Origin: Candidatus Curtissbacteria bacterium RIFOXYA1_FULL_41_14 | GTDB lineage: Bacteria; Patescibacteriota; Microgenomatia; Curtissbacterales; GWA2-41-24 | Direction: 5' to 3' | Assembly: GCA_001775095.1 (NCBI GenBank) | Contig: MFCA01000029.1 | Location: 55,975 to 119,974 of the forward strand | Length of the DNA stretch: 64,000 bases | Shown: piece after piece, positions 2,521 to 34,071 of the stretch | How the letters are laid out: every line of letters begins with the position of its first letter | Position numbering within the stretch: the first letter of the stretch is position 1 | The notes under the pieces: generated by a model | The model's database searches: none | The model's input: only the letters and a program-made list of their open reading frames with translations | What the model was told of the DNA's origin: nothing | Position numbers and translations under genes: made by a program

Positions 2521-3882
2521 TCAACCCGAATTTGCGGTCGGACCCCTATTTAGCCTGGAGTTGATTTGTGATGCCAAACTTGCAATTTTTACTCTTTCTT
2601 GTTTTGTCGTGTCACGATCACGGATAGTTACTGTATCATCCTCCAAAGTTTTAAAGTCGATGGTCACACAATACGGCGTGCCGATTTCGTCCTGAGAGTA
2701 ATAACGCTTTCCGATATTTCCCCGCTCATCCCAGGCAATGGGTAAAAGTTCACGGTTCACAGTTAACAGTTCACGGACCAAGCGGGCTTTTTTGACTAGT
2801 TCCGGTTTGTTGGCCAAAAGCGGGAAGACGGCAACCTTGACCGGTGCAAGTTTGGGATTAAGTTTTAGGACAACTCGGCCTTGTCCTGAGTTTGTCGAAG
2901 GATCTTTGTCTTCATTATATGCGTCAATTAAAAAGAAGAGTGCGGCGCGGTCTACACCTCCTGAGGTTTCAATAATCCATGGCAAATAATGCTTACCGGT
3001 TTCCTGATCGAAGTATTGCATATCTTGACCGGAAGATTTTTGATGTTGTGAAAGATCCCAGTCCCCCCGATTGTGAATTCCTTCGAACTCTTTCCAGCCA
3101 AAGGGTGAATCGTATTCAATATCCCAAGCATCCCGGGCATAATGGGCTCGTTCATTTTCTTCGTGCTGACGGAAACGGAGCTTGTTTTCAGTCATACCTA
3201 GCGTCCGGTACCAATTCATTCTTTCTTTTTTCCAATATTCATACCATTTTCTTGCCTGGCTTTCTTCTGGTTTGATATAAAACTGCAGTTCCATCTGTTC
3301 AAATTCTCTTGAGCGGAAAGTAAAGTTCCCCGGGTTAATTTCGTTGCGGAAAGCCTTACCTATTTGGGCAATCCCAAAAGGTATTTGCAGTCTTGTCGAG
3401 TCTAAAACATTTTTAAAGTTGACATGAACACCTTGAGTAATTTCGCCGCGAAGATAAACCTTTTGTTTAGCCTCCTCAACTACTCCTAATTTTGCCTCAA
3501 CCAAAAGATTGAATTTTCTGGACGGGGTCCATTGGGTCTTTTTGCCTTGGTGAGATTTTTCGTGACCTGCCAAATCTTCTTTTTGATCCGCCTTAAATCT
3601 TTGATGACAGATTTTACACTCCACCAAAGGATCGACAAAAGCCTTGACATGGCCGGACGCTTCCCAAACCTTTGGATTCATCAAGATTGCTGCATCAATC
3701 CCGACAACATCATTCCGTCCGTAAACAGTTGATTGCCAAAAAGCTTCCTTGATATTGTTTTTAAGTTCTACACCCAAAGGACCATAATCCCAAGTTCCCC
3801 CCAAGCCGCCATAAATTTCTGAGCCCGGAAAAATAAAGCCTCGGCGCTTACAAAGAGAAACGATCTTATCAAGAGTAGTCAT
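2521..3882 (-). CDS. glyQS: glycine--tRNA ligase, dimeric class II form
   Basis: N-terminus MTTLDKIVSLCKRRGFIFPGSEIYGGLGGTWDYGPLG is the classic GlyQS signature. Full-length, 453 aa. Confidence 0.9.
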   Translation of the reverse strand: MTTLDKIVSLCKRRGFIFPGSEIYGGLGGTWDYGPLGVELKNNIKEAFWQSTVYGRNDVVGIDAAILMNPKVWEASGHVKAFVDPLVECKICHQRFKADQKEDLAGHEKSHQGKKTQWTPSRKFNLLVEAKLGVVEEAKQKVYLRGEITQGVHVNFKNVLDSTRLQIPFGIAQIGKAFRNEINPGNFTFRSREFEQMELQFYIKPEESQARKWYEYWKKERMNWYRTLGMTENKLRFRQHEENERAHYARDAWDIEYDSPFGWKEFEGIHNRGDWDLSQHQKSSGQDMQYFDQETGKHYLPWIIETSGGVDRAALFFLIDAYNEDKDPSTNSGQGRVVLKLNPKLAPVKVAVFPLLANKPELVKKARLVRELLTVNRELLPIAWDERGNIGKRYYSQDEIGTPYCVTIDFKTLEDDTVTIRDRDTTKQERVKIASLASQINSRLNRGPTANSG

Positions 3883-4730
3883 TTTGAGGAAACAACGACA
3901 TATGTTGCGAAGGAGTCAGTCGTTGCAGAAATGGTCTTGGAAGCACTGTCGTAATTTGAATCAAGCTTTGCCCATTTGGAATCAGTATGATTGTAGCTAT
4001 AAAGTTGGGGGTTTTCGACATCTTGGGTAAGTTTGATGCTTAAAGGGGCACTTTTTGAAAAGACGGGCGCCACCGAAAAAGTACCATAAACAGGTAAAAC
4101 TACGCCTTTAATATCAAATTGGCCATTTGCCGGAACACCGACTGTGTCTGAAATAATCACAAAATAATTTTTGCCGAGAGTTGGAGAGGTCATTTGAAAA
4201 TTACCGGACTGATCTTTAAGCGTTGCTGAGCTTGCGACAATTTGCTCAAAACCCCAACCGGTTTCAGACTGATATTCTGTCTCTCCTTTGAACATATGTA
4301 TTGTCAGTTTGCCATCGGTTATCCCGGTATCCGGACTTCGAACACCTTTTGAAGCTGTACCCAGTAGAATCGATTTCTTATACTTTGGATCTTTGGTATT
4401 TACATCAATACCCGTTGCACCCCGCTGGATCTTTTCACCGGCGATATTAGGGTTGTCTGCCAAGTAAGTTAGCTCATACTCGATCTGGTCAAAATCAGTC
4501 ATATTCTCAATAGAGAGTAAAATTTCTGCGCCGTCAGAGGTTGGTGTCAAAGTCACATAGGGACGCTTTGCAACATCAATTTCATTTAGCTGTCTAACTT
4601 CCCCTGAAACCTCCTCGGGCTTAATTTGTCCAGGCCCTTTTTGAAAGATAAATAAGAAGTAAACAGCGACTAAAATACCTATAAAACCGATAGCAGCAAT
4701 GATGTAAGTGTTGCGTTTAGCCTGATCCAT
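3879..4730 (-). CDS. hypothetical membrane-anchored protein (one N-terminal TM, extracytoplasmic domain)
   Basis: N-terminal hydrophobic helix IIAAIGFIGILVAVYFLFIF followed by a 250-aa hydrophilic domain. 4-bp overlap with glyQS stop suggests co-transcription. Confidence 0.45.
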   Translation of the reverse strand: MDQAKRNTYIIAAIGFIGILVAVYFLFIFQKGPGQIKPEEVSGEVRQLNEIDVAKRPYVTLTPTSDGAEILLSIENMTDFDQIEYELTYLADNPNIAGEKIQRGATGIDVNTKDPKYKKSILLGTASKGVRSPDTGITDGKLTIHMFKGETEYQSETGWGFEQIVASSATLKDQSGNFQMTSPTLGKNYFVIISDTVGVPANGQFDIKGVVLPVYGTFSVAPVFSKSAPLSIKLTQDVENPQLYSYNHTDSKWAKLDSNYDSASKTISATTDSFATYVVVSSK

Positions 4731-4878
4731 CTCAATTTAAATTTCGAAATCCTAAATTCTAAATCCGAAACAAATCCAAATATTCAAAATTCTAAATTCA
4801 AAATACCTAATGTTCAAGAACTTGAATTTAGATATTGTTTAGAATTTCGTGCTTAGTATTTTGGACTTGCAAACAAAA
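4731..4878. repeat. AT-rich intergenic inverted-repeat element, family A copy 1
   Basis: cctaaattctaaatccgaaacaaatccaaat ... gaatttagatattgtttagaatttcg. The arms are mutually complementary. Related copies at 8069-8250, 14534-14701 and 17331-17422. Confidence 0.55.
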
Positions 4879-8068: not shown

Positions 8069-8250
8069 ATCCTGAAAAATTCTAATTTCTAAATCCTAAA
8101 TCCTAAACAAATCTAAATGACCAAAATATAAAATTTAAAACAATTTAAAAAAAACAAATTTACTTTTTTGTTTTTTGAACATTTGAATTTTGATATTGTT
8201 TAGAGTTTAGAATTTAGCGTTTAGAATTTGATTAGCTATTAGGTCAATTT
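8069..8250. repeat. AT-rich intergenic inverted-repeat element, family A copy 2
   Basis: tctaaatcctaaatcctaaacaaatctaaatgaccaaaata...ttgaacatttgaattttgatattgtttagagtttagaatttag. Nearly identical to 14534-14701. Lies between a gene 3' end and the next gene start on the minus strand. Confidence 0.6.
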
Positions 8251-12394: not shown

Positions 12395-13594
12395 CTAGAG
12401 GCTGTATTGTACATAAACCTTAAGTGTCTCTCTGGCCATCTTAAGCCAAGAGTATTTTTGCACTTGTTCCAAGCCCTTTACTACGAGGTCGGACCTCGTA
12501 GTTGTATCTGTGAGGACTTTTTGGATTTTTCTGGATATATCTTTTGGATCCTCTGGATCGAAATACAATGCGGCATCCCCGTAGATTTCTTTAAGTGTCG
12601 GAATGTTTGAACAAACTGCCGGAAGGCCCGCGGCCATGGAATTAAGACCGGGAATTCCAAACCCCTCCGAAAGTGATGGGAATACATAAGCTTGGGCAGA
12701 TCTTAAGACTTCTGATAATTCTTTTGGCGGAATATAGCCAGTCAGGACAACTCCCTCCTCTAATCCTAGATTCTTTATCCTTTCTTTTAGGCGTTGCCAG
12801 AAAATATCCCGAGGACAGACAAGGATTAAGTGCAGCTTGCGCTCACCCCAGGGGTGTTTTTCTATTCTGTGAACCGTTGACTGTGAACCGTGAACTAAAA
12901 TCTTGAAAGCTTGCAGTAACCGTTCAAGATTTTTGTGTGGATAAGCATTCCCTATATAAATGATAAAAGGCTGATTAATATTGTATTTCTCCAAAAACTT
13001 TGAACTTTGAACTTTGAACTTTGAACTTGTTCGGAAGTATTCCTCTTCTGCCGCTTCGTATGTTACGACGATTTTCGCAGGATCAATTCGAAAAGTCCTA
13101 ACAATCTCGTCCTTAACAAAATTCGAGGGGGTGAGGATTTTTTGAGAATCTTTGACAGCATGATTAATAACATGTCGATAAGCAAACCTTTTAATTTTAA
13201 AAATGTAAAGATTCCGAGTCGTTGCGGATTCTTGTCTAAATCGATGATGGATCAGGTCATGAATTGTTACTATGAATTTACCTCTGTAAAAAACAGGCAC
13301 GTTAAAATGAGTAAAGTGTAAAAGATCTAAATTCTGGTTTGAAAAAATTTTTGGTAATTTAATTTGCTCTTTGAGAGAATACCAGGGGATATCTGCTAAA
13401 ACCTTTTTGAAATTTTTGGATTTTAACCTTAGCCAATCCCAGTTAGACCGGCGCAGAAAAATAACATACTGATTATTGTCATCTAAAATTGCGAGATTTT
13501 CGATAAGTTTTTCAGTATATTTACCAAGACCTGTACCTTCCGGACCGACAAACCTCGCATCAATACCAATTCTCATATATCCCCCTCTTGTCAT
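12395..13594 (-). CDS. glycosyltransferase family 4 (probable true start MRIGIDAR at 13576), carries heptamer tract and gtgaac-repeat insert
   Basis: MRIGIDARF N-terminus and PSLSEGFGIPGLNSMAAG motif. Extra loop GSQSTVHRIEKHPWGERKLH relative to paralog 23002-24141. Confidence 0.8.
   Translation of the reverse strand: MTRGGYMRIGIDARFVGPEGTGLGKYTEKLIENLAILDDNNQYVIFLRRSNWDWLRLKSKNFKKVLADIPWYSLKEQIKLPKIFSNQNLDLLHFTHFNVPVFYRGKFIVTIHDLIHHRFRQESATTRNLYIFKIKRFAYRHVINHAVKDSQKILTPSNFVKDEIVRTFRIDPAKIVVTYEAAEEEYFRTSSKFKVQSSKFLEKYNINQPFIIYIGNAYPHKNLERLLQAFKILVHGSQSTVHRIEKHPWGERKLHLILVCPRDIFWQRLKERIKNLGLEEGVVLTGYIPPKELSEVLRSAQAYVFPSLSEGFGIPGLNSMAAGLPAVCSNIPTLKEIYGDAALYFDPEDPKDISRKIQKVLTDTTTRSDLVVKGLEQVQKYSWLKMARETLKVYVQYSL
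12998..13029. repeat. heptanucleotide tract (CTTTGAA)x4 plus partial unit inside GT4 coding sequence
   Basis: Seen: ctttgaactttgaactttgaactttgaacttg, encoding SSKFKVQSSKF on the minus strand. Unit length is not a multiple of 3. Confidence 0.75.
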
Positions 13595-14533: not shown

Positions 14534-14701
14534 AATAAATTTCTAATTTCTAAATCCTAAATCCTAAATCCTAAACAAATTCAAATGACCAAAATACATA
14601 ATTCAAAACAAATCTTAATTTTTTGGTTTATTTGAACATTTGAATTTTGATATTGTTTAGAGTTTAGATATTAGAGTTTAGGATTTTTATTAGTTATTAG
14701 G
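14534..14701. repeat. AT-rich intergenic inverted-repeat element, family A copy 3
   Basis: Near-identical to 8069-8250 apart from the central ~25 bp, including the attaggtcaattt end that overlaps the upstream gene stop. Confidence 0.6.
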
Positions 14702-21690: not shown

Positions 21691-22950
21691 TTATGAAGTT
21701 TTTTCCGAAGCAACTTTTTCGAGGACCTGTAGGGTAATTTTGGCGCATTTTTGCCAGGAAAAGTGCTTGATGTTGGAAAAACCATTTTTGACCAGGTCGG
21801 ATCTGATTTTTGGGTCAAGAGTCTTTTTAATACCGTCGGCTATTGACTGGATACTTTCAGGATTGATAAGTATGGCGCTACACCTAAGATCCACCCCTGG
21901 GGTGTTCTCAGGGTGACGTCCTGACTTCACCTCAGGGGTGAGCGAGTTGGCTCCTACTATTTCCGGCAGACTTGAGGTGTTGGAAACAACAACCGGCACT
22001 CCACAAGCTTGAGCCTCGATAACCGGAATACCAAAGCCTTCCCAAAGCGAAGGCAAGACGTAGGCTCGAGCTCCACTGATCAAAACTGGTAAGTCGGAAT
22101 CGGAAACGTAATCAGTAAAAATAACTTTGTTTTGTAGTCCCAAGGTCTTGACTTTTTTGAAAATTGAATCATAAAGCCAACCTTTCTTGCCGACAATCAC
22201 CAATAATAAGTTGTCGGTTATCGGTTTACGGTTCACGGTTTTTTTATTCCTGTGAACTGTGAACTGCCTGCCCTGAGCGAAGTCGAAGGGTGAACTGTGA
22301 ACTAGAATCTTGAAAGCTTCTAAAAGTCTTTCAAGATTCTTGCGCGGCTGGAGTGTACCGACAAAAATAATGTAATCGCTAGAAATTTTATATTTCTTTT
22401 TCATTCTATCAATAGAATATTTAGATTGCGGCTTGAAGCGATCTTTGTCATACCCCTCATAGGTGACAGTAATCTTCGAAGGAGCGACATTGTAATTTTT
22501 AACAATATCGTCTTTTGTAGTTTGCGAAACAGCAATGATATGGGTTGCTTTTTTGATGGAAGCTTTAGTACCAAAAGTCAGCTGAATAAGATCGCTTTTT
22601 TTAAAAAGTTCTGAATAATGTAGAAATGAAAGATCATGGATAGTTACTACTTGCGGCACTGGACAGATCCTTGGAAGGTAATGAGCAGTTGAGAAGTAAA
22701 CACTTGTTCTTTTGTTGACGATTAGGTGCAATGGTAAGGCGAGTTGAGTCCAGAACTTCCTAGGTCCGAGAACTTTGTACTGAAAGCTGGCAATAGGTTT
22801 TGGTAAATCAGGAAGTGGTTTGTCCTTAAGGTAAACAATAAACTGATGTCTTTTGTCTTTAACAAATTGCCAAAGTAGTTCAAAAGCGTATTGACCGGTA
22901 CCAACTCTGGTTCGTACATTTGCTTCATTTCCGTCTATTCCTATAAGCAT
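21691..22950 (-). CDS. glycosyltransferase family 4 carrying an in-frame repeat-derived insert
   Basis: MLIGIDGNEANV N-terminus and PSLWEGFGIPVIEAQACGVPVV motif. Extra loop SSPFDFAQGRQFTVHRNKKTVNRKPITDN is encoded by repeat 22224-22304. Confidence 0.8.
   Translation of the reverse strand: MLIGIDGNEANVRTRVGTGQYAFELLWQFVKDKRHQFIVYLKDKPLPDLPKPIASFQYKVLGPRKFWTQLALPLHLIVNKRTSVYFSTAHYLPRICPVPQVVTIHDLSFLHYSELFKKSDLIQLTFGTKASIKKATHIIAVSQTTKDDIVKNYNVAPSKITVTYEGYDKDRFKPQSKYSIDRMKKKYKISSDYIIFVGTLQPRKNLERLLEAFKILVHSSPFDFAQGRQFTVHRNKKTVNRKPITDNLLLVIVGKKGWLYDSIFKKVKTLGLQNKVIFTDYVSDSDLPVLISGARAYVLPSLWEGFGIPVIEAQACGVPVVVSNTSSLPEIVGANSLTPEVKSGRHPENTPGVDLRCSAILINPESIQSIADGIKKTLDPKIRSDLVKNGFSNIKHFSWQKCAKITLQVLEKVASEKTS
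22224..22304. repeat. composite element (gtgaact direct repeats flanking ccctgagcgaagtcgaaggg core) inserted in-frame in a GT4 gene
   Basis: ggttcacgg...ctgtgaactgtgaactg-cctgccctgagcgaagtcgaaggg-tgaactgtgaactag. Core is 20/21 identical to 731-750. A coreless version (gtgaaccgttgactgtgaaccgtgaact) sits at the homologous site of GT4 12395-13594. Confidence 0.55.
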
Positions 22951-22951
22951 A

Positions 22952-22986
22952 GTGATTAGTGATTAGTGATTAGTGATTAGTGATTA
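22952..22986. repeat. heptanucleotide tract (GTGATTA)x5 abutting the start codon of GT4 21691-22950
   Basis: Seen: gtgattagtgattagtgattagtgattagtgatta, one base after the minus-strand ATG (22948-22950). The whole 51-bp intergenic spacer is mostly this repeat. Confidence 0.8.
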
Positions 22987-23001
22987 GTCACTACACACTA
23001 T

Positions 23002-27203: not shown

Positions 27204-28271
27204 TTATGAAATTGATAACTTATTAATAAGAGCTTGGTATTTTTGAGCCACTTTATTCCAGCTAAATTTTAGAGCTTGGGTGTAAGGAATATTTTTATAA
27301 TTTGTTTTTGCAGCAAGTTCTAGATCCTTGGCATACTGCTCAACGTTACCGGGATCAGTAAGAATTCCAGCGGGACCGATTATTTCAGCCCTGGAATCAT
27401 CTGCAGTGGTCACTACAGGGAGATTGCAGGCCATAGCCTCAACATAAGAAATTCCAAATGCTTCTGTTTTTGAAGCGAGAGTAAAAACATTTCCCGACCT
27501 GTAATAAGCAGGAATTTGCTCATAGGGCACCACTAATCTTAAATATCTTTTGCCTAAGAGCCTTTTGCCAAGAGTATCAATCATCCCATGCAACTGACCA
27601 TCTCCTAATATTAAAAGGCTTAAGTTTTTTGTCTTAGCAATAGCTTTAATGGTTAAATCCACTCTTTTATAGGGAACAAGGGCCGAAGCACAAACTGCTA
27701 TTGGCTTCGCTAGAGGCAAAGTCTTCGATTTAACCTTTGGATTGAAACGTGCCAGGTCAACTCCATTAGGAATTGTAACTATCTCGACCTCCGGAGCTAA
27801 CCGTTTTGCCCAGTCAGCCTCTGCCTTAGTTAAAGCTACAAAGACGTCAGGTCTAAAAAAAAGATTGGCGGCATCATCCGAGCCTATGCCCGCATGGCCA
27901 GAGGTTAAAATTTTTGCTCCTGTGATTTTCGTAACTATCCTAAAAACTAGTGTCTGCCATCCGCCGTTTAGGGGAATAATTAAATCGTATTTCCCTCTAT
28001 AGATCTTGAGTAAGGCTCTTAAGCTAAAAATCAATATTTTGACGGAACTCCAATCTAAATAAAATTTACTAAGTACGCCGCAAGTTGACTTTGGGGTACT
28101 GACGAACGATTTAATTTCTTCAACCCTATATTTTTGTGGTTTTGTATGGCCGGCCGCAAAAACCGTCACCTTATGTTTAACAGATAGACGTTTGCTAATT
28201 TCAAAAGCAAACGTTTCCACTCCCCTGTCGACTATCCCGGAATAGAAACTTAAAATAGCAATTTTATACAT
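27204..28271 (-). CDS. glycosyltransferase family 4 (start re-assigned to MYKIAILSF; track ORF extends to 28367 through the duplicated region)
   Basis: Canonical GT4 N-terminus MYKIAILSFYSG and SKTEAFGISYVEAMACNLPVV. The 31-aa upstream extension in the track is translation of repeat DNA. Confidence 0.8.
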   Translation of the reverse strand: MYKIAILSFYSGIVDRGVETFAFEISKRLSVKHKVTVFAAGHTKPQKYRVEEIKSFVSTPKSTCGVLSKFYLDWSSVKILIFSLRALLKIYRGKYDLIIPLNGGWQTLVFRIVTKITGAKILTSGHAGIGSDDAANLFFRPDVFVALTKAEADWAKRLAPEVEIVTIPNGVDLARFNPKVKSKTLPLAKPIAVCASALVPYKRVDLTIKAIAKTKNLSLLILGDGQLHGMIDTLGKRLLGKRYLRLVVPYEQIPAYYRSGNVFTLASKTEAFGISYVEAMACNLPVVTTADDSRAEIIGPAGILTDPGNVEQYAKDLELAAKTNYKNIPYTQALKFSWNKVAQKYQALINKLSIS

Positions 28272-28535
28272 ATTGGTAAAGTTTCTGCGGTCCTCGTTCC
28301 TCGATATCAGCCTTCGCCTTCGGCGAATCTGATATATCAGAGGAGTAATATTGAAACAAAGTTTCAAATTGATCTGCTGATATAAACTCGGAACTGCGGG
28401 CCTAAGAAACTTAAAATAGCAATTTTATACATATTGGTAAAGTTTCTGCGGTCCTCGTTCCTCGATATCAGAGGAGCAATATTGAAACAAAGTTTCAAAT
28501 TGATCTGCTGATATAAACTCGGAACTGCGGGCCTA
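28245..28535. repeat. tandem duplication (units ~160 bp and ~131 bp) covering promoter region and first 9 codons of GT4 27204-28271
   Basis: gaaacttaaaatagcaattttatacatattggtaaagtttctgcggtcctcgttcctcgatatcag[30-bp extra in copy 1]aggag(t/c)aatattgaaacaaagtttcaaattgatctgctgatataaactcggaactgcgggcctaa occurs twice head-to-tail. Copy 2 carries a 22-codon pseudo-ORF starting MYKIAILSF. Confidence 0.85.
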
Positions 28536-28566
28536 AGAAACTAAGAATTGCGATCTTGGTTATTTT

Positions 28567-30534
28567 CTAAGAACGATTTTTTACTTTTGATGATCTACGT
28601 TTGTGAATATACCATAAAAAAAGCATAAATATGATGGTAAGGCTGATGGTTTTACCTGTGTTAAAAGTCTCAGGTTGATACTTTAACTCTAAGGTCTTTG
28701 TATTTGGCAGAACATTCACTCTCCTAAAAACAGGTTCTTTCCTTTCCGCAGGGAATTTTTGATGATCCTGAAAGGCAAACCAGCCGGGATAAAAGTTTTC
28801 AGCAAAAATCAGGATTCGAGATTCTGGCCGTTCACTGAACTGGACCTGAATTGAATTTGGTGAATATTTCTCAATAATTACCTCATCGGCTAAATTATTA
28901 AAATAGGCCCGCGGCTTATATTTTTGATTCTGATAAAGATAAATTTTTTCGAATTGGTTGATAAATATCAGGTCGCTATCTGTTATCGGATAGGTTGAGG
29001 CCACATATTTAACATTAGCAAGACTTAAGAGATTAATATTTGGTTGAGGCAAATCATCCTTCTGCCAAACCTGGTATGGAGGAAAAATCACGGCAAATTT
29101 AGAATATTCATAGCCGCCTGCTGCCTGTAAGAAATCAATAAAATTAGCATCCTGAATAGGTGTTTCTCCATGTAAAACTTGAATTTTGTATTTAGATATT
29201 AATTGCGGATTAAAACAATAAGTTGTGCAGTAAACCCGATAAAAACCTTTATCTTCGGCAAGGAACTGGTATAGGGGCTCATTTGTAAAAATTAAATTCG
29301 GAATAGAGTTGATTTTCCTGTATCCGATAAAAAAAGATTCTGCTAAGAAAATAAGCAGTATCAGGTAAATTATTGATTTTCTCTTAAATTTCTCAAGAGC
29401 AAATGCGCTTAAAAGAGCAACAATTAAAGCTACAATAAACCATAATCTTGTTGTGACTCGTGAGTATTTCAAAAAGGGCACAAAATTATAGAAAAATTCA
29501 AAAAGAGGTGTTGAAAGCCCGGCAATAAAAAGTAATGCAGCAAAGCCTCCAAACAACAAAACAATTTTTTTAAGTCTAGACAGCTTAAAAAAGCCAATAA
29601 TTGAGAAAAGGCTTGGAATAAGGCCTAGATAGAGAAATGACTCATGATCAAGACTATTAAAATTCAAGTAAGGAAATATTAGGCTAGTTACTAATCTTTT
29701 AAGATTCCAAGCTGGTATTGCCACATCTTCAATGGTTAAACGTGATCTTGTCGAGAACGGTGCAAACTCTGCTTGTGGCAAAATAAATATGGCTGAAAAA
29801 CCCAAAAAAATAACAATTGTAAAAAAAATATTAATAACCTGTTTTTTGATAGCAACAATCTCCAGGCTTTTTGTTATCCATGCGGACACTAAAACTCGGT
29901 AGGCCCAATAAGTAGCTAAAAAAATAAGTGCATAATAAAAAATTGTCGGATAGGTCATCAGCATAAAAGTCAGAGATACTGCCCCGATTATTATCCAAGT
30001 TAGGGGTGCAACCCCTAATAGGGGCCTGACTCTTTTTGGCACAAAAATTGTTCTGATTGATAAAAGGGTCAACGGAAAGTAAGAAAAGGCAGCAATCATA
30101 GTAATATGGCCGGCTGAAAGGTGAAAAATCATTTTCGTCGAGAAAGCGTAAAAAAGAGCGGCAGCAAAAGACGAAAGCGGTAATAATTTAAAAGAGCGAG
30201 AAAGTAAATATATAAAAACTCCAGCTAGTAGAAAATGGATAAAAAGATAAATTATAGAGGCAAATTTAATCGGAAAAATCAAAAAAAGGAGGTTTGCGGG
30301 ATAGAACAATGATGAAAGTGGATTGCCGATAAAAGTCTCCCCCATCATCTGATCCGGACGCCATAAAGGAATTTGTTTGTAATAAAAAATTGAATCTCTT
30401 AAAAAGCTAAAAAGGGGAATATAAGTTCTTCCGAGATCATTATCCTTTAAAGCTAATAAATCAGGCTTTATTAAAAACGGAAGAAAGAAGACCAAACAGA
30501 TCACAAAAAATAAAATGAGGTAATTATTTTTCAT
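28567..30534 (-). CDS. YfhO-family-like polytopic membrane glycosyltransferase (GT-C)
   Basis: N-terminal loop IPLWRPDQMMGETFIGNPLSSLFYPANLLF, many TM helices, C-terminal extracytoplasmic domain with FYPGWFAFQD motif. 655 aa. Confidence 0.45.
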   Translation of the reverse strand: MKNNYLILFFVICLVFFLPFLIKPDLLALKDNDLGRTYIPLFSFLRDSIFYYKQIPLWRPDQMMGETFIGNPLSSLFYPANLLFLIFPIKFASIIYLFIHFLLAGVFIYLLSRSFKLLPLSSFAAALFYAFSTKMIFHLSAGHITMIAAFSYFPLTLLSIRTIFVPKRVRPLLGVAPLTWIIIGAVSLTFMLMTYPTIFYYALIFLATYWAYRVLVSAWITKSLEIVAIKKQVINIFFTIVIFLGFSAIFILPQAEFAPFSTRSRLTIEDVAIPAWNLKRLVTSLIFPYLNFNSLDHESFLYLGLIPSLFSIIGFFKLSRLKKIVLLFGGFAALLFIAGLSTPLFEFFYNFVPFLKYSRVTTRLWFIVALIVALLSAFALEKFKRKSIIYLILLIFLAESFFIGYRKINSIPNLIFTNEPLYQFLAEDKGFYRVYCTTYCFNPQLISKYKIQVLHGETPIQDANFIDFLQAAGGYEYSKFAVIFPPYQVWQKDDLPQPNINLLSLANVKYVASTYPITDSDLIFINQFEKIYLYQNQKYKPRAYFNNLADEVIIEKYSPNSIQVQFSERPESRILIFAENFYPGWFAFQDHQKFPAERKEPVFRRVNVLPNTKTLELKYQPETFNTGKTISLTIIFMLFLWYIHKRRSSKVKNRS

Positions 30535-32031: not shown

Positions 32032-32778
32032 TTAAAAATTATCTCGCTTGTATTTTCCTTTCAAATCATTCCATCTAATTTTAATTAGGCCAAAAAAAGA
32101 TCTTGCTACATCTTTTCCAAGAGAAACCTTAGTGCCTCTAACATCACTCCAAGTTACCGGAGCTTGAGCAACTCTGATATTTAGTTTTTTGCATATGAAC
32201 AGAATTTCCGCATCAAAAGCCCAATCGTAAATCGTAATTTTGTTAAATATTTTTTGAGCGACATTTTTTTCAAAAGTCTTAAAGCCGCAAGTTGCGTCTT
32301 TAATTTTCCAGTCAATCAATAATCTAACAAGCAGTGTAAAACCTCTCCCGAGAATCTCACGCAAAAAATGTTGATGGATAAGAATTTTAGCTCCCTCAAT
32401 TCGCCTTGAACCGATAGCAACTTGGTACCCTCTTTCAAAATGTTTAAAGAAACCCTCAATAGTATTTATGGGAACCGAATGATCCAAATCAGTAAATAAA
32501 ATGTATTTGCCTTTGGCGTTTATTATTCCTTGAACTATCGCATAGCCTTTCCCGTGATTTTTATTGTAACTAATGACTTGAATGCTTGATTTGTCTTTTG
32601 CACATGCTCGTATCAGCTTCAAGGTGTTATCTTTTGACCCATCATTAACAAAAATAAGTTCCCATGGATATTTTTGTTTTGAAAGATAAGAAAAATAGTG
32701 ATCAAATCCTTTCTGAAAACGTTTTTCCTCGTTATAACAAGGAACTACTACAGATAATTTAATTGACGTTTTTGGCAT
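32032..32778 (-). CDS. GT2 polyprenyl-phosphate sugar synthase (DPM1/GtrB/ArnC-like)
   Basis: LSVVVPCYNEE...FVNDGSKDNT...TDLDHS. Short C-terminus with amphipathic tail, 248 aa. Confidence 0.7.
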   Translation of the reverse strand: MPKTSIKLSVVVPCYNEEKRFQKGFDHYFSYLSKQKYPWELIFVNDGSKDNTLKLIRACAKDKSSIQVISYNKNHGKGYAIVQGIINAKGKYILFTDLDHSVPINTIEGFFKHFERGYQVAIGSRRIEGAKILIHQHFLREILGRGFTLLVRLLIDWKIKDATCGFKTFEKNVAQKIFNKITIYDWAFDAEILFICKKLNIRVAQAPVTWSDVRGTKVSLGKDVARSFFGLIKIRWNDLKGKYKRDNF

Positions 32779-34048
32779 TTAACTTGAAAAGAACATAAAA
32801 AAGCATTAGAGAAAAAGCCAAGAATTCACTTATTGTGAAAGCATAGGCAGCACCAATTGCTTCAAAACTCGGCACTGCAAGAAAGAGCAGAATTACAAAG
32901 AACCAATAGCGCGAAAACGTGATTGCAAATGATATTTGTGATTTTCCGAAATAGTAAAGGATTATTGAGGAAGGAATGGTTGATAAGAAAAAGAAAATAA
33001 AGCCAATTGCTAAAATTTTGAGAACTTGAATGGAGCCGCTAAACTCTTTGCCGAAAATCAAAATAACTAAGGGATCGGCAATAAGAATTAAAAATAGGAG
33101 TCCCAAACTAAATAGTAATACTAGACCGCTTGTTTTCTTGGCAAAATTAATTACTTTTTCTTTATTATCAAAAGAAGCAAAACGTGATGCTAAGACGCTT
33201 GTAAAGTTGCCTCCAAATTCATAAACAACCGTTAATATCTTTAAGGGAGCAGCATAAAGGCCAGTTTGAATAGGTCCGGCTAGCTTCAGAAGAAAGTAAT
33301 TATCAAATGGGATTGAGGCTAGTGTTAATGAAAAAGCAACCCAAATATTGAATTTAAAGAAATCACTGGCAAGGCTTTTGTCGATTTTTTCAATATTAAA
33401 TGGTAAAAAGTATTTGCCAATTATGGTGGAGATAATGGTTACGGCAAAGTAAATAACTGTCAAAAAATACAATCCAATTGTAAAAAAATATGAACCGATT
33501 AAAAGGAGAACAATTCTTGCAACATTATTGGCGATAGAAGGAATTGACGCTTTAAGAAATTCCTGCCTCGCCTGAAGCCCGGCAACAAATAAATTAGTCA
33601 GATGAAAAAAAACTGTTGCTCCAAAGGCAATTCTTAAAAAGAGAGTAATTTCTGGGTGTCCTAAAATAGCAGAAAGGATTGGCGCTATGAAAAAGCCGAT
33701 TACCGCTATTATCAGACCGAAAAATAAATACGACTTGAGGGCAATTGAAAGAATTGCATTTTGCTGGTTTGAACTCCTGTGGGCAAATTTTAGTATTCCG
33801 GTTTCGACACCTAGGCTTGACAACCGAACCGCTACTACTCCTGTCGCAACAACTGTTGAAAATATACCAAAATCTGAAGGCCCAAGAATTCGCGGTGCAA
33901 GAATAAAAAATAATCCACCGACAATTACGTTGACAAGAGTTCCGGCAAAAACTATTGAAGTATCTTTACCTGTATCGGTTAAAAGAAGATCTTTAAAAGA
34001 TTGAATCATTCGGTCAAAGTATAAGCAAAGCTTGCGGTCCTCGTCCAC
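32759..34048 (-). CDS. Wzx-type polysaccharide flippase (MOP superfamily); ATG start probably at 34009
   Basis: 12-TM Polysacc_synt-like architecture. Track uses a GTG start inside repeat element 34033-34071; internal ATG (MIQSFKDLLL) is more plausible. Confidence 0.55.
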   Translation of the reverse strand: MDEDRKLCLYFDRMIQSFKDLLLTDTGKDTSIVFAGTLVNVIVGGLFFILAPRILGPSDFGIFSTVVATGVVAVRLSSLGVETGILKFAHRSSNQQNAILSIALKSYLFFGLIIAVIGFFIAPILSAILGHPEITLFLRIAFGATVFFHLTNLFVAGLQARQEFLKASIPSIANNVARIVLLLIGSYFFTIGLYFLTVIYFAVTIISTIIGKYFLPFNIEKIDKSLASDFFKFNIWVAFSLTLASIPFDNYFLLKLAGPIQTGLYAAPLKILTVVYEFGGNFTSVLASRFASFDNKEKVINFAKKTSGLVLLFSLGLLFLILIADPLVILIFGKEFSGSIQVLKILAIGFIFFFLSTIPSSIILYYFGKSQISFAITFSRYWFFVILLFLAVPSFEAIGAAYAFTISEFLAFSLMLFYVLFKLNAKNVN

Positions 34049-34071
34049 TTCACAGTGGACTGCGGGCCTAA
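34033..34071. repeat. family C element (tgcggtcctcg ... ctgcgggcctaa) minimal copy
   Basis: Same terminal motifs as the boundaries of each unit in the 28245-28535 duplication. Inner part is a short palindrome ccacttcacagtgg. Confidence 0.45.

Follow-up and report, generated by a model that had tools for sequence, protein, structure and literature searches.

The window analysed here is a 64,000-nt stretch of contig MFCA01000029.1 (positions 55,975 to 119,974 of the forward strand) from Candidatus Curtissbacteria bacterium RIFOXYA1_FULL_41_14. It comprises a low-GC (31–43 %), mostly minus-strand gene cluster that harbours many glycosyltransferases and membrane glycosylation proteins. Within this cluster, the 5′ end of a GT4 glycosyltransferase gene displays two head-to-tail copies of a unit composed of a hairpin element, termed E, a short linker and a block, termed A, that encodes the start of the protein. 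A further, diverged copy of the start block, A′, lies upstream of both. Coordinates are window positions, the layout is read on the strand of the gene (minus), and L-numbers denote loci fetched for comparison. The features of the region are as follows.

27204–28271, minus strand: GT4 glycosyltransferase coding sequence, 355 aa, start ATG at 28271; Pfam Glycos_transf_1, Glyco_trans_1_4 and Glyco_transf_4
27204–28367, minus strand: 387-aa open reading frame (ORF) with a TTG start; not a gene, but an N-terminal over-extension reading out of the proximal E
28245–28271, minus strand: A (proximal), the real start codon and codons 2–9, MYKIAILSF; the final 7 nt of the block, AAGTTTC, pair with the beginning of the linker
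28272–28285, minus strand: linker GAAACTTTACCAAT of the proximal unit, kept in every E-bearing GT4 locus
28286–28405, minus strand: proximal E, a family-C hairpin element of 120 nt with ends TTAGGCCCGCAG and CGAGGACCGCA and nested hairpins; fold z −3.8 sense, −4.9 antisense
28311–28340, no strand assigned: 30-nt extra mini-hairpin, in the proximal unit only; core TTCGCC-GAA-GGCGAA, unique in all DNA compared
28335–28382, plus strand: nested second-family hairpin (TATCAGAGGAG...CTGCTGATA) inside the proximal E; this family is common to L008, L043 and L059
28364–28432, minus strand: 22-codon dead-end ORF (MYKIAILSFLGPQFRVYISRSI, then a stop) from the distal ATG; it stops inside the proximal E, 92 nt before the true ATG
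28406–28432, minus strand: A (distal), an identical second start with nine codons; decoy ATG at 28432
28433–28446, minus strand: linker of the distal unit
28447–28536, minus strand: distal E, a family-C hairpin element of 90 nt with C at 28477 and without the 30-nt extra; z of the fold −3.65 and −5.08
28466–28513, plus strand: nested second-family hairpin inside the distal E
28537–28563, minus strand: A′, relic ancestral GT4 start, ITKIAILSF, 3 nt past the yfhO-like stop, where relatives have their start codons
28567–30534, minus strand: yfhO-like membrane protein gene upstream of GT4; stop TAG at 28567–28569

Read from upstream, the minus strand presents the yfhO-like stop TAG (28569–28567), AAA, A′, distal E, linker, A, proximal E, linker and A, followed by TAT TCC GGG and the remainder of GT4. 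Each unit consists of E (TTAGGCCCGCAG, a variable hairpin and CGAGGACCGCA), a 14-nt linker and A, the last comprising the GT4 ATG and codons 2–9 (ATG TAT AAA ATT GCT ATT TTA AGT TTC). As delimited with a repeat finder and by direct alignment, the proximal unit spans 28245–28405 (161 bp) and the distal unit 28406–28536 (131 bp); they differ solely in a 30-bp indel at 28311–28340, the placement of which is ambiguous by 7 nt, and at a single substituted base (T at 28346, C at 28477). Their orientation, their near identity and the novel A-to-E junction, at which ATTTTAAGTTTC abuts TTAGGCCCGCAG (...AAGTTTC followed by TTAGGCC...), are those of a tandem duplication in the general sense. Of the 27-nt block GAAACTTAAAATAGCAATTTTATACAT, which encodes the start MYKIAILSF, there are exactly two copies, where chance would predict none. 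Tandem Repeats Finder, when run on the window, did not report the pair at 28245–28536 because of the 30-bp indel, and a search of the window for tRNA and tmRNA genes returned none. The initial annotation of this DNA had described tandem units of 160 and 131 bp, each with the start MYKIAILSF, and this proves accurate to within 1 bp. The extra 30 bp, which it took to be an internal duplication, are instead a unique mini-hairpin bracketed by a TATCAG/CTGATA stem, and just 7–10 nt of the piece repeat adjoining sequence.

The start of the GT4 gene itself is set by its homologues. Among the matches listed (n = 120), these cover 95–100 % of the coding sequence (99–100 % for most), and all 120, at lengths of 336–377 aa, start with M-x-(K/N)-IAILSFYSG, their first residue corresponding to ATG 28271. 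The coding sequence is therefore 27204–28271 (355 aa); the functional start is the proximal ATG, and the distal ATG is a by-product. In an exact-product look-up, the 355-aa protein is listed in 107 collection blocks and the 387-aa product is not on record. The earlier suspicion that ORF 27204–28367 is an artefact is upheld by the start position of the listed homologues, and the 22-codon pseudo-ORF previously described as issuing from the distal copy is indeed present at 28364–28432.

Insertion at the GT4 5′ end and number of units

Directly after the yfhO-like stop lies A′, ATAACCAAGATCGCAATTCTTAGTTTC (ATA ACC AAG ATC GCA ATT CTT AGT TTC), a diverged third copy of the GT4 5′ codons. Neither this block, nor the insertion nature of even a single unit, featured in the initial annotation. 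The comparison with relatives that it had proposed returned both single-unit contigs and loci with empty or filled sites. In L005 (78 % protein identity) and L067 (80 %), which are orthologues devoid of E, GT4 begins 1 and 20 nt, respectively, past the upstream stop, and both read ...AGT TTT / TAT TCT GGA across the junction of codons 9 and 10. At this same junction, E, the linker and a second start block are found in the window, L003 (87 %), L004 (85 %), L006, L007, L008 and L068–L070 (71 %), the additional sequence in L004 comprising 83 nt placed exactly at the junction. [quoted passage not shown]

Because the E-less relatives start exactly at the position of A′, these alignments show E, linker and A to be an insertion between codons 9 and 10 of GT4 (...TT(C/T)^TAT...) in an ancestor. 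GT4 was not disrupted, since a new start and an unchanged set of nine N-terminal residues came with the inserted DNA. A′ lies where the ancestral start was, and its sequence follows each lineage, with the A′ of L003 and that of L004 each matching the real start of L067 at 24 of 27 nt. Its start codon is ATG in L003, L004, L006, L007 and L008, GTG in L068, and ATA only in the lineage of the window.

The number of units is not the same in all assemblies of this strain. Two contigs from sister assemblies, L001 and L002, are 100 % identical to the window over ~7 kb and each contains exactly one unit, with the 30-nt extra in L001 and without it in L002. The two-unit form could, on this evidence, be a mis-join of co-existing single-unit alleles; likewise, when looked up as exact products, the 44-aa junction ORF is not on record and nor is the 387-aa ORF, and a junction scan of the metagenome collection gave three other lineages and no second tandem. 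Such an artefact is, however, quite improbable. The k-mers of the tandem junction are absent from L001 and L002 for all values of k tested, the smallest being 9, and the tandem thus cannot arise by mixing the two alleles, given that a de Bruijn assembler cannot invent a join; in addition, tandem arrays of E and its flank exist in independently assembled metagenome-assembled genomes (MAGs), as detailed below. All k-mers of the single-unit contigs, by contrast, lie inside the tandem up to k = 65 (L001) and 67 (L002), with 75 and 73 k-mers, respectively, being foreign to it at k = 141. Because of this containment, the easier artefact is for a true tandem to collapse. Either forms with one and with two units coexist in the population, or the contigs with a single unit collapsed during assembly.

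On balance, the locus probably holds a two-unit tandem array of E, linker and replacement start that was inserted in the GT4 5′ end and expanded via its flank repeats. One unit came to lie in the GT4 gene of an ancestor between codons 9 and 10, stranding A′ behind the yfhO-like stop. This event would have left imperfect direct repeats on either side of E, namely A′ and A, which share AGTTTCT at the junction. Slippage and unequal exchange classically act on direct repeats that bracket a hairpin, and A′ and A may have served as the substrate from which slippage or unequal recombination generated the second unit; the same process could also remove units. In the window, the exchange point would fall within the AGTTTCT common to the ends of A′ and A, as it must because the middle A is a complete copy. 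The distal ATG would then have remained as a by-product, opening the 22-codon ORF that ends in the proximal element.

Additional hairpins were observed close to this site in two relatives. The spacer upstream of A′ in L004 (L004:1–60, compared with L067:720–756) has an extra hairpin, CCCCAATCTGCATTGCGGATTGGGG, flanked by repeated GGGGT, a further instance of a small inserted hairpin with a short repeat at its flanks. On the minus strand of L008, ~150 nt upstream of E, second-family hairpins (TATCAGAGGAG...CTGCTGATA) and a CTGATATAG...CTATATCAG hairpin have been inserted at the yfhO-like gene's 3′ end, immediately ahead of ...TATTCACAAGCG, such that the C-terminus of the protein would be altered.

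The E repeat family and its flanks

Elsewhere in the window, the end motifs TGCGGTCCTCG and CTGCGGGCCTAA co-occur only at 34033–34071, as part of one further element.

34024–34071, minus strand: short canonical family-C element; core at 34033–34071, 16-nt hairpin TCCACTGTGAAGTGGA, then mini-hairpin AGCTTTGCT; covariance model 46 bits, E-value 1e-9

This element sits between a gene stop (34081) and the start (ATG 34009) of a Wzx-type flippase identified with Pfam. The recurrence of the unit boundaries at 34033–34071 had been seen in the initial annotation and is genuine, but family C, which was there regarded as a boundary microrepeat mediating the duplication, in fact forms the body of each unit. 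The flippase is called as a 429-aa GTG ORF (32759–34048, minus strand) that starts within the element; its real start is likely ATG 34009 (MIQSFKDLLL...), with the over-extension being due to the repeat.

A scan of one genome per species with the exact pattern TTAGGCCCGCAG-N10-40-CGAGRACCGCA identified 58 loci, nearly all of them in MAGs of Candidatus Curtissbacteria/Patescibacteria, with 7–9 copies in some MAGs and a few MAGs labelled otherwise. A covariance model built from 13 members gave 76 matches in 0.41 Mb of fetched E loci; in the GT4 copies, the nested inserts are too long for it to span, and only the ends of these copies are matched. The family is mostly intergenic and present in several copies per MAG, and thereby resembles repetitive extragenic palindromic (REP) sequences as short, multi-copy, extragenic palindromes. 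Amongst the E-bearing MAGs at L011, L016, L017, L020, L022, L024, L026, L034, L036, L044 and L050, several are titled ‘uncultured Gammaproteobacteria’ (third-party annotation, or TPA, assemblies). As E is otherwise strictly confined to Curtissbacteria/Patescibacteria, these labels are probably wrong. The viral contigs scanned contained 0 matches to E, and the 6 matches to the nested second family are about what chance would yield by rough estimate, a convincing hairpin being present in L074 only.

The family has conserved ends of 12 and 11 nt around a hairpin that is variable in both sequence and length. The interiors of 68 elements comprise 58 distinct sequences of 10 to 97 nt, almost always forming a hairpin, with a total of 275 Watson–Crick and 59 G.A pairs; a conserved tandem G.A step (YGAG/CGAR) is often found in the stem. 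In an alignment that was itself fitted to the covariance model, seven of seven interior pairs change on both sides, and 64 compensated cells are counted against 15.7 in shuffles. None of 500 shuffles reaches the observed compensation, and slid registers collapse. Conservation of the hairpin by compensatory changes is thus supported. The window elements fold with z of −3.3 to −5.1 relative to shuffled controls, considering both strands. Closing of E relies on GGCCC/GGACC only (5 bp with a central mismatch), with further pairing contributed by flanking DNA. The closing stem slightly favours the plus strand, and the interior displays no strand asymmetry (G.U vs. A.C, 12 vs. 13).

Nesting recurs within the family, with several members possessing a doubled stem or a second module in the loop. 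The window elements hold, in inverted orientation, the second-family hairpin listed above, and the 30-nt extra of the proximal E bears the same type of TATCAG/CTGATA stem as that hairpin. At an apparently orthologous site in L026, L028, L045, L053, L064 and L065, located past a terminator-like hairpin (GCCTGCCGGCAGGCAGG and a T-run) and before TGGCACTGTATAC, E elements with identical ends have entirely different interiors.

With regard to the flanks, the upstream sequence is repeated downstream in 16 of 63 elements, with scores beyond at least 199 of 200 shuffles and repeat lengths of 9–41 nt. In most cases the upstream copy ends exactly at the 5′ edge of E and the downstream copy stops just before TA. 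Tandem arrays of E and flank occur in L031 (2 × 82 bp, 100 % identity) and L056 (2 × 163 bp, 95 %). Judging from these loci, the E family is characterised by repeated flanks and by tandem arrays. An architecture like that of GT4 was also noted at a GT2 gene in L060 (2640–2760), where the old start (MKNKLLISVIIPI) overlaps the upstream stop (ATGA) and is followed by E; past E there is an 11-bp perfect hairpin (AGCAGGAATTA...TAATTCCTGCT), the loop of which has a new start (MKVTVVIPA) joined to YNEE.

Origin, function and relation to known repeats

Several observations weigh against the proposed history of insertion and expansion. No transposase, integrase or REP-associated tyrosine transposase (RAYT) is encoded among 61 neighbouring ORFs (± 4 kb around the elements), and no longer parent element was found, with E half-sites being nearly always paired within 140 nt in 0.48 Mb; mobility of E is therefore deduced only from filled and empty sites. 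The flank repeats are variable in length, three quarters of members have none, and there is no classical target-site duplication. The window, moreover, is the sole place where the tandem form was found. E has invariant ends and a changing interior, even at the one orthologous site in six MAGs. A comparison of the window with L068 reveals 50 of 52 identical positions across the cassette (E end, linker and A) vs. 81 of 120 in the next 120 nt (p = 1.3e-5), conservation dropping sharply right past TATTC. Nor is A copied from the local A′: the A of the window is that of L003 and matches the A of L068 at 26 of 27 nt, whilst the A′ blocks match at just 19–23 of 27. Finally, A′ retains a start codon and an intact nine-codon frame in six of seven lineages, and in L004, L007 and L068 the ORF from A′ runs through E to end 4–13 nt beyond where the true ATG starts, a hint of translational coupling. 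The way in which E moves, and any role it may have, are matters of inference.

The conservation of the cassette and the mismatch between A and A′ would fit either lateral spread or functional constraint. In the first case, E, linker and A would form a self-contained mobile cassette. By bringing along a substitute start codon together with the first nine codons of its target, it could occupy the 5′ coding end of a conserved glycosyltransferase gene and leave that gene active; it would have spread among Curtissbacteria and, with its unit number (1 or 2) made unstable by the flanking repeats, would act as a contingency-type switch. The GT4 genes have diverged to ~68 % DNA identity and the cassette remains at ~96 %, and E interiors and A types occur in mosaic combinations among lineages. 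This scenario is rather unlikely. Were it true, a surface-glycan gene of a bacterium of the candidate phyla radiation (CPR) would possess a switch with an upstream decoy or coupling ORF. A cassette that was either mobile or regulatory would represent a new way for selfish DNA to enter genes harmlessly, and could vary cell-surface glycosylation in episymbiotic bacteria.

A different kind of movement would be site-specific exchange of cassettes, in the manner of integrons, with E as a recombination site that imported a foreign GT4 and left the old start behind. The A and local A′ blocks differ mainly at synonymous sites, as between two diverged genes, and the 34-kb copy begins GTTAGGC, resembling an integron core site. 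This motif (of the type GTTRRRY) is, however, present at one end only, in the wrong relative orientation for attC, in which inverted core sites (RYYYAAC ... GTTRRRY) occupy the two ends, and the GT4 copies have CTTAGGC; no integrase is found among the neighbours, which are unrelated housekeeping genes. Conservation also falls right after codon 9–10, so the GT4 body is native and was not imported with the cassette. Exchange of this type is thus very improbable, and assignment of E to attC was rejected. Also rejected was the notion of E as a marker of glycosyltransferase cassettes or of a neighbouring recombinase, as the genes beside it encode a ribosomal protein, tRNA synthetase, ribosome recycling factor (RRF), CTP synthase and similar products.

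E itself might be a selected cis-element at which a Curtissbacteria factor that recognises the ends plus any hairpin binds or processes RNA or DNA, the duplication being a side effect of the palindrome. The invariant 12- and 11-nt ends, around an interior that varies yet remains paired even at the orthologous site in six MAGs, resemble junk less than they do a selected site for binding or processing, and the tandem G.A step is conserved. A crude ORF-based count of 14 elements co-directional with genes on the same strand, 17 co-directional on the opposite strand, 16 between convergent and 6 between divergent genes makes E commoner in convergent than in divergent settings. The same count, however, reveals no orientation preference relative to transcription (14 vs. 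17), the G.U pairs show no strand asymmetry, and E is patchy at the GT4 site among close relatives, lies within a former coding region and lacks an Rfam match. We therefore consider a selected element of this kind doubtful.

Alternatively, the array might act on GT4. The initial annotation had envisaged a duplicated promoter that may raise expression or supply a decoy similar to an upstream ORF (uORF). Duplication of a promoter is left unsupported: a promoter and terminator consensus scan of the gene's strand at 27900–28900, which does not cover Patescibacteria promoter rules, detected no sigma-70-like promoter or terminator, and the E-less gene starts 1–20 nt past the upstream stop, an arrangement that, by its spacing, is operon-type. 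In a broader version of this idea, the unit would carry the promoter or leader of GT4, with its copy number (1 or 2) or the 22-codon ORF, as a uORF, tuning or phase-varying a surface-glycan gene. Glycosyltransferase genes are classic phase-variable loci, and the present one is variable in an otherwise clonal background. Linker and A are unusually conserved across lineages, and relatives keep the upstream ORF from A′, including the three in which it ends beside the true ATG. GAAACTT is also predicted to pair either with A′, thereby closing E, or with GT4 codons 7–9, and such alternative pairing, together with the upstream ORF of relatives, is reminiscent of leader-peptide or uORF attenuators. 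Yet the A′ of the window has lost its ATG, and the E family, far from being specific to gene starts, is found in all orientations beside unrelated housekeeping genes. The true ATG is predicted to be equally unpaired with one or two units, and the decoy ORF stops 92 nt upstream of it, too far for coupling. An adaptive regulatory device is accordingly unlikely.

A search of the window against Rfam 15 gave no match at gathering score, relaxed E-values yielding just 12–21 bits against gathering scores of 40–70, and a known RNA family was thus rejected. With no promoter or terminator, Rfam match, orientation bias, transposase or integrase neighbour or wobble asymmetry detected, and with accessibility of the true ATG unchanged by the second unit, the array is most likely neutral or selfish DNA as opposed to an evolved regulatory device. 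Lateral spread, a sequence-specific partner of the ends and translational coupling all rank lower than this explanation.

The locus exemplifies a hairpin repeat family with conserved ends, a fast-changing but paired interior, nested hairpins, and repeated flanks from which tandem arrays arise. The usual description of the small CPR/Patescibacteria genomes is one of streamlining. E can sit within the front part of an essential-looking gene because the insert brings a new start, and the repeat explains the mis-called 387-aa ORF, the spurious second start and the disagreement between assemblies of the same strain.

A literature search found no description of dispersed hairpin repeats in Curtissbacteria or CPR, and E is apparently a form of REP/MITE-like repeat that has not been described before. 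Its closest known counterparts are bacterial MITEs, REP sequences and bacterial interspersed mosaic elements (BIMEs), and Rickettsia palindromic elements (RPEs) (reviewed in PMC2229807 and PMC10969869). The REP/BIME/REPIN sequences of Proteobacteria are, like E, short, multi-copy, mostly intergenic and lineage-specific hairpins that are often placed at gene ends and between convergent genes and can form side-by-side clusters. In REP, however, the palindrome itself is conserved, whereas in E it is the non-palindromic ends that are conserved and the stem that varies. E further differs in its nested foreign hairpins, its long flank repeats, the lack of a RAYT among the 61 neighbours, and its location inside a former coding 5′ end at two loci (GT4 and, in L060, the GT2 gene). 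Bacterial MITEs such as Correia/NEMIS, RUP, BOX and ERIC share with E the character of small non-autonomous insertions with filled and empty sites, hairpins and nesting, and can alter gene ends or expression. Unlike them, E possesses no terminal inverted repeats of at least ~10 bp, but just an imperfect stem of 5 bp that closes it; a target duplication of fixed length is likewise lacking, with only the flank repeats of 9–41 nt in 16 of 63 elements; and no parent insertion sequence with the same ends was found in the fetched loci (0.48 Mb).

Integrative elements that bring a spare copy of the end of their target, such as islands that integrate in tRNA genes, duplicate or replace, as does the E unit, the interrupted end of their target gene such that function is kept and the displaced original becomes a diverged relic. 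These islands are nevertheless kilobase-sized, harbour an integrase and restore a tRNA 3′ end, whereas the E unit is 83–161 nt, has no enzyme and restores the 5′ end of a protein gene. TIGR (tandem interspaced guide RNA) arrays, which are long tandems of ~36-nt units with variable spacers beside a Nop-domain Tas gene (PMC12045711), were rejected, since E is dispersed singly, has constant ends and a unit period of 82–163 nt, and lacks a Nop-domain neighbour. RPEs resemble E as palindromic repeats tolerated in the protein genes of a reduced-genome bacterium. They are, however, translated in-frame as part of the host protein, whilst at GT4 there is no read-through of E, with translation restarting at the replacement start carried by the insert.

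A lone E-interior hairpin, TCCTGAGTTTGTCGAAGGA, may be nearer to the RPE case. It is present at 2884–2902 (plus strand; covariance model 18.8 bits) within ORF 2521–3882 (minus strand), a class II tRNA synthetase (Pfam tRNA-synt_2b and HGTP_anticodon) in which it encodes ..DPSTNSGQG..., and may represent an in-frame insertion in a coding gene, as described for Rickettsia. Heptamer (7-bp) tandem repeats are also common in the spacers of the window (22950–22988, 12996–13028, 14550–14575, 8077–8107 and 4730–4810, amongst others), and repeats of this type lie directly upstream of E in L021, L039, L046, L051 and L058.

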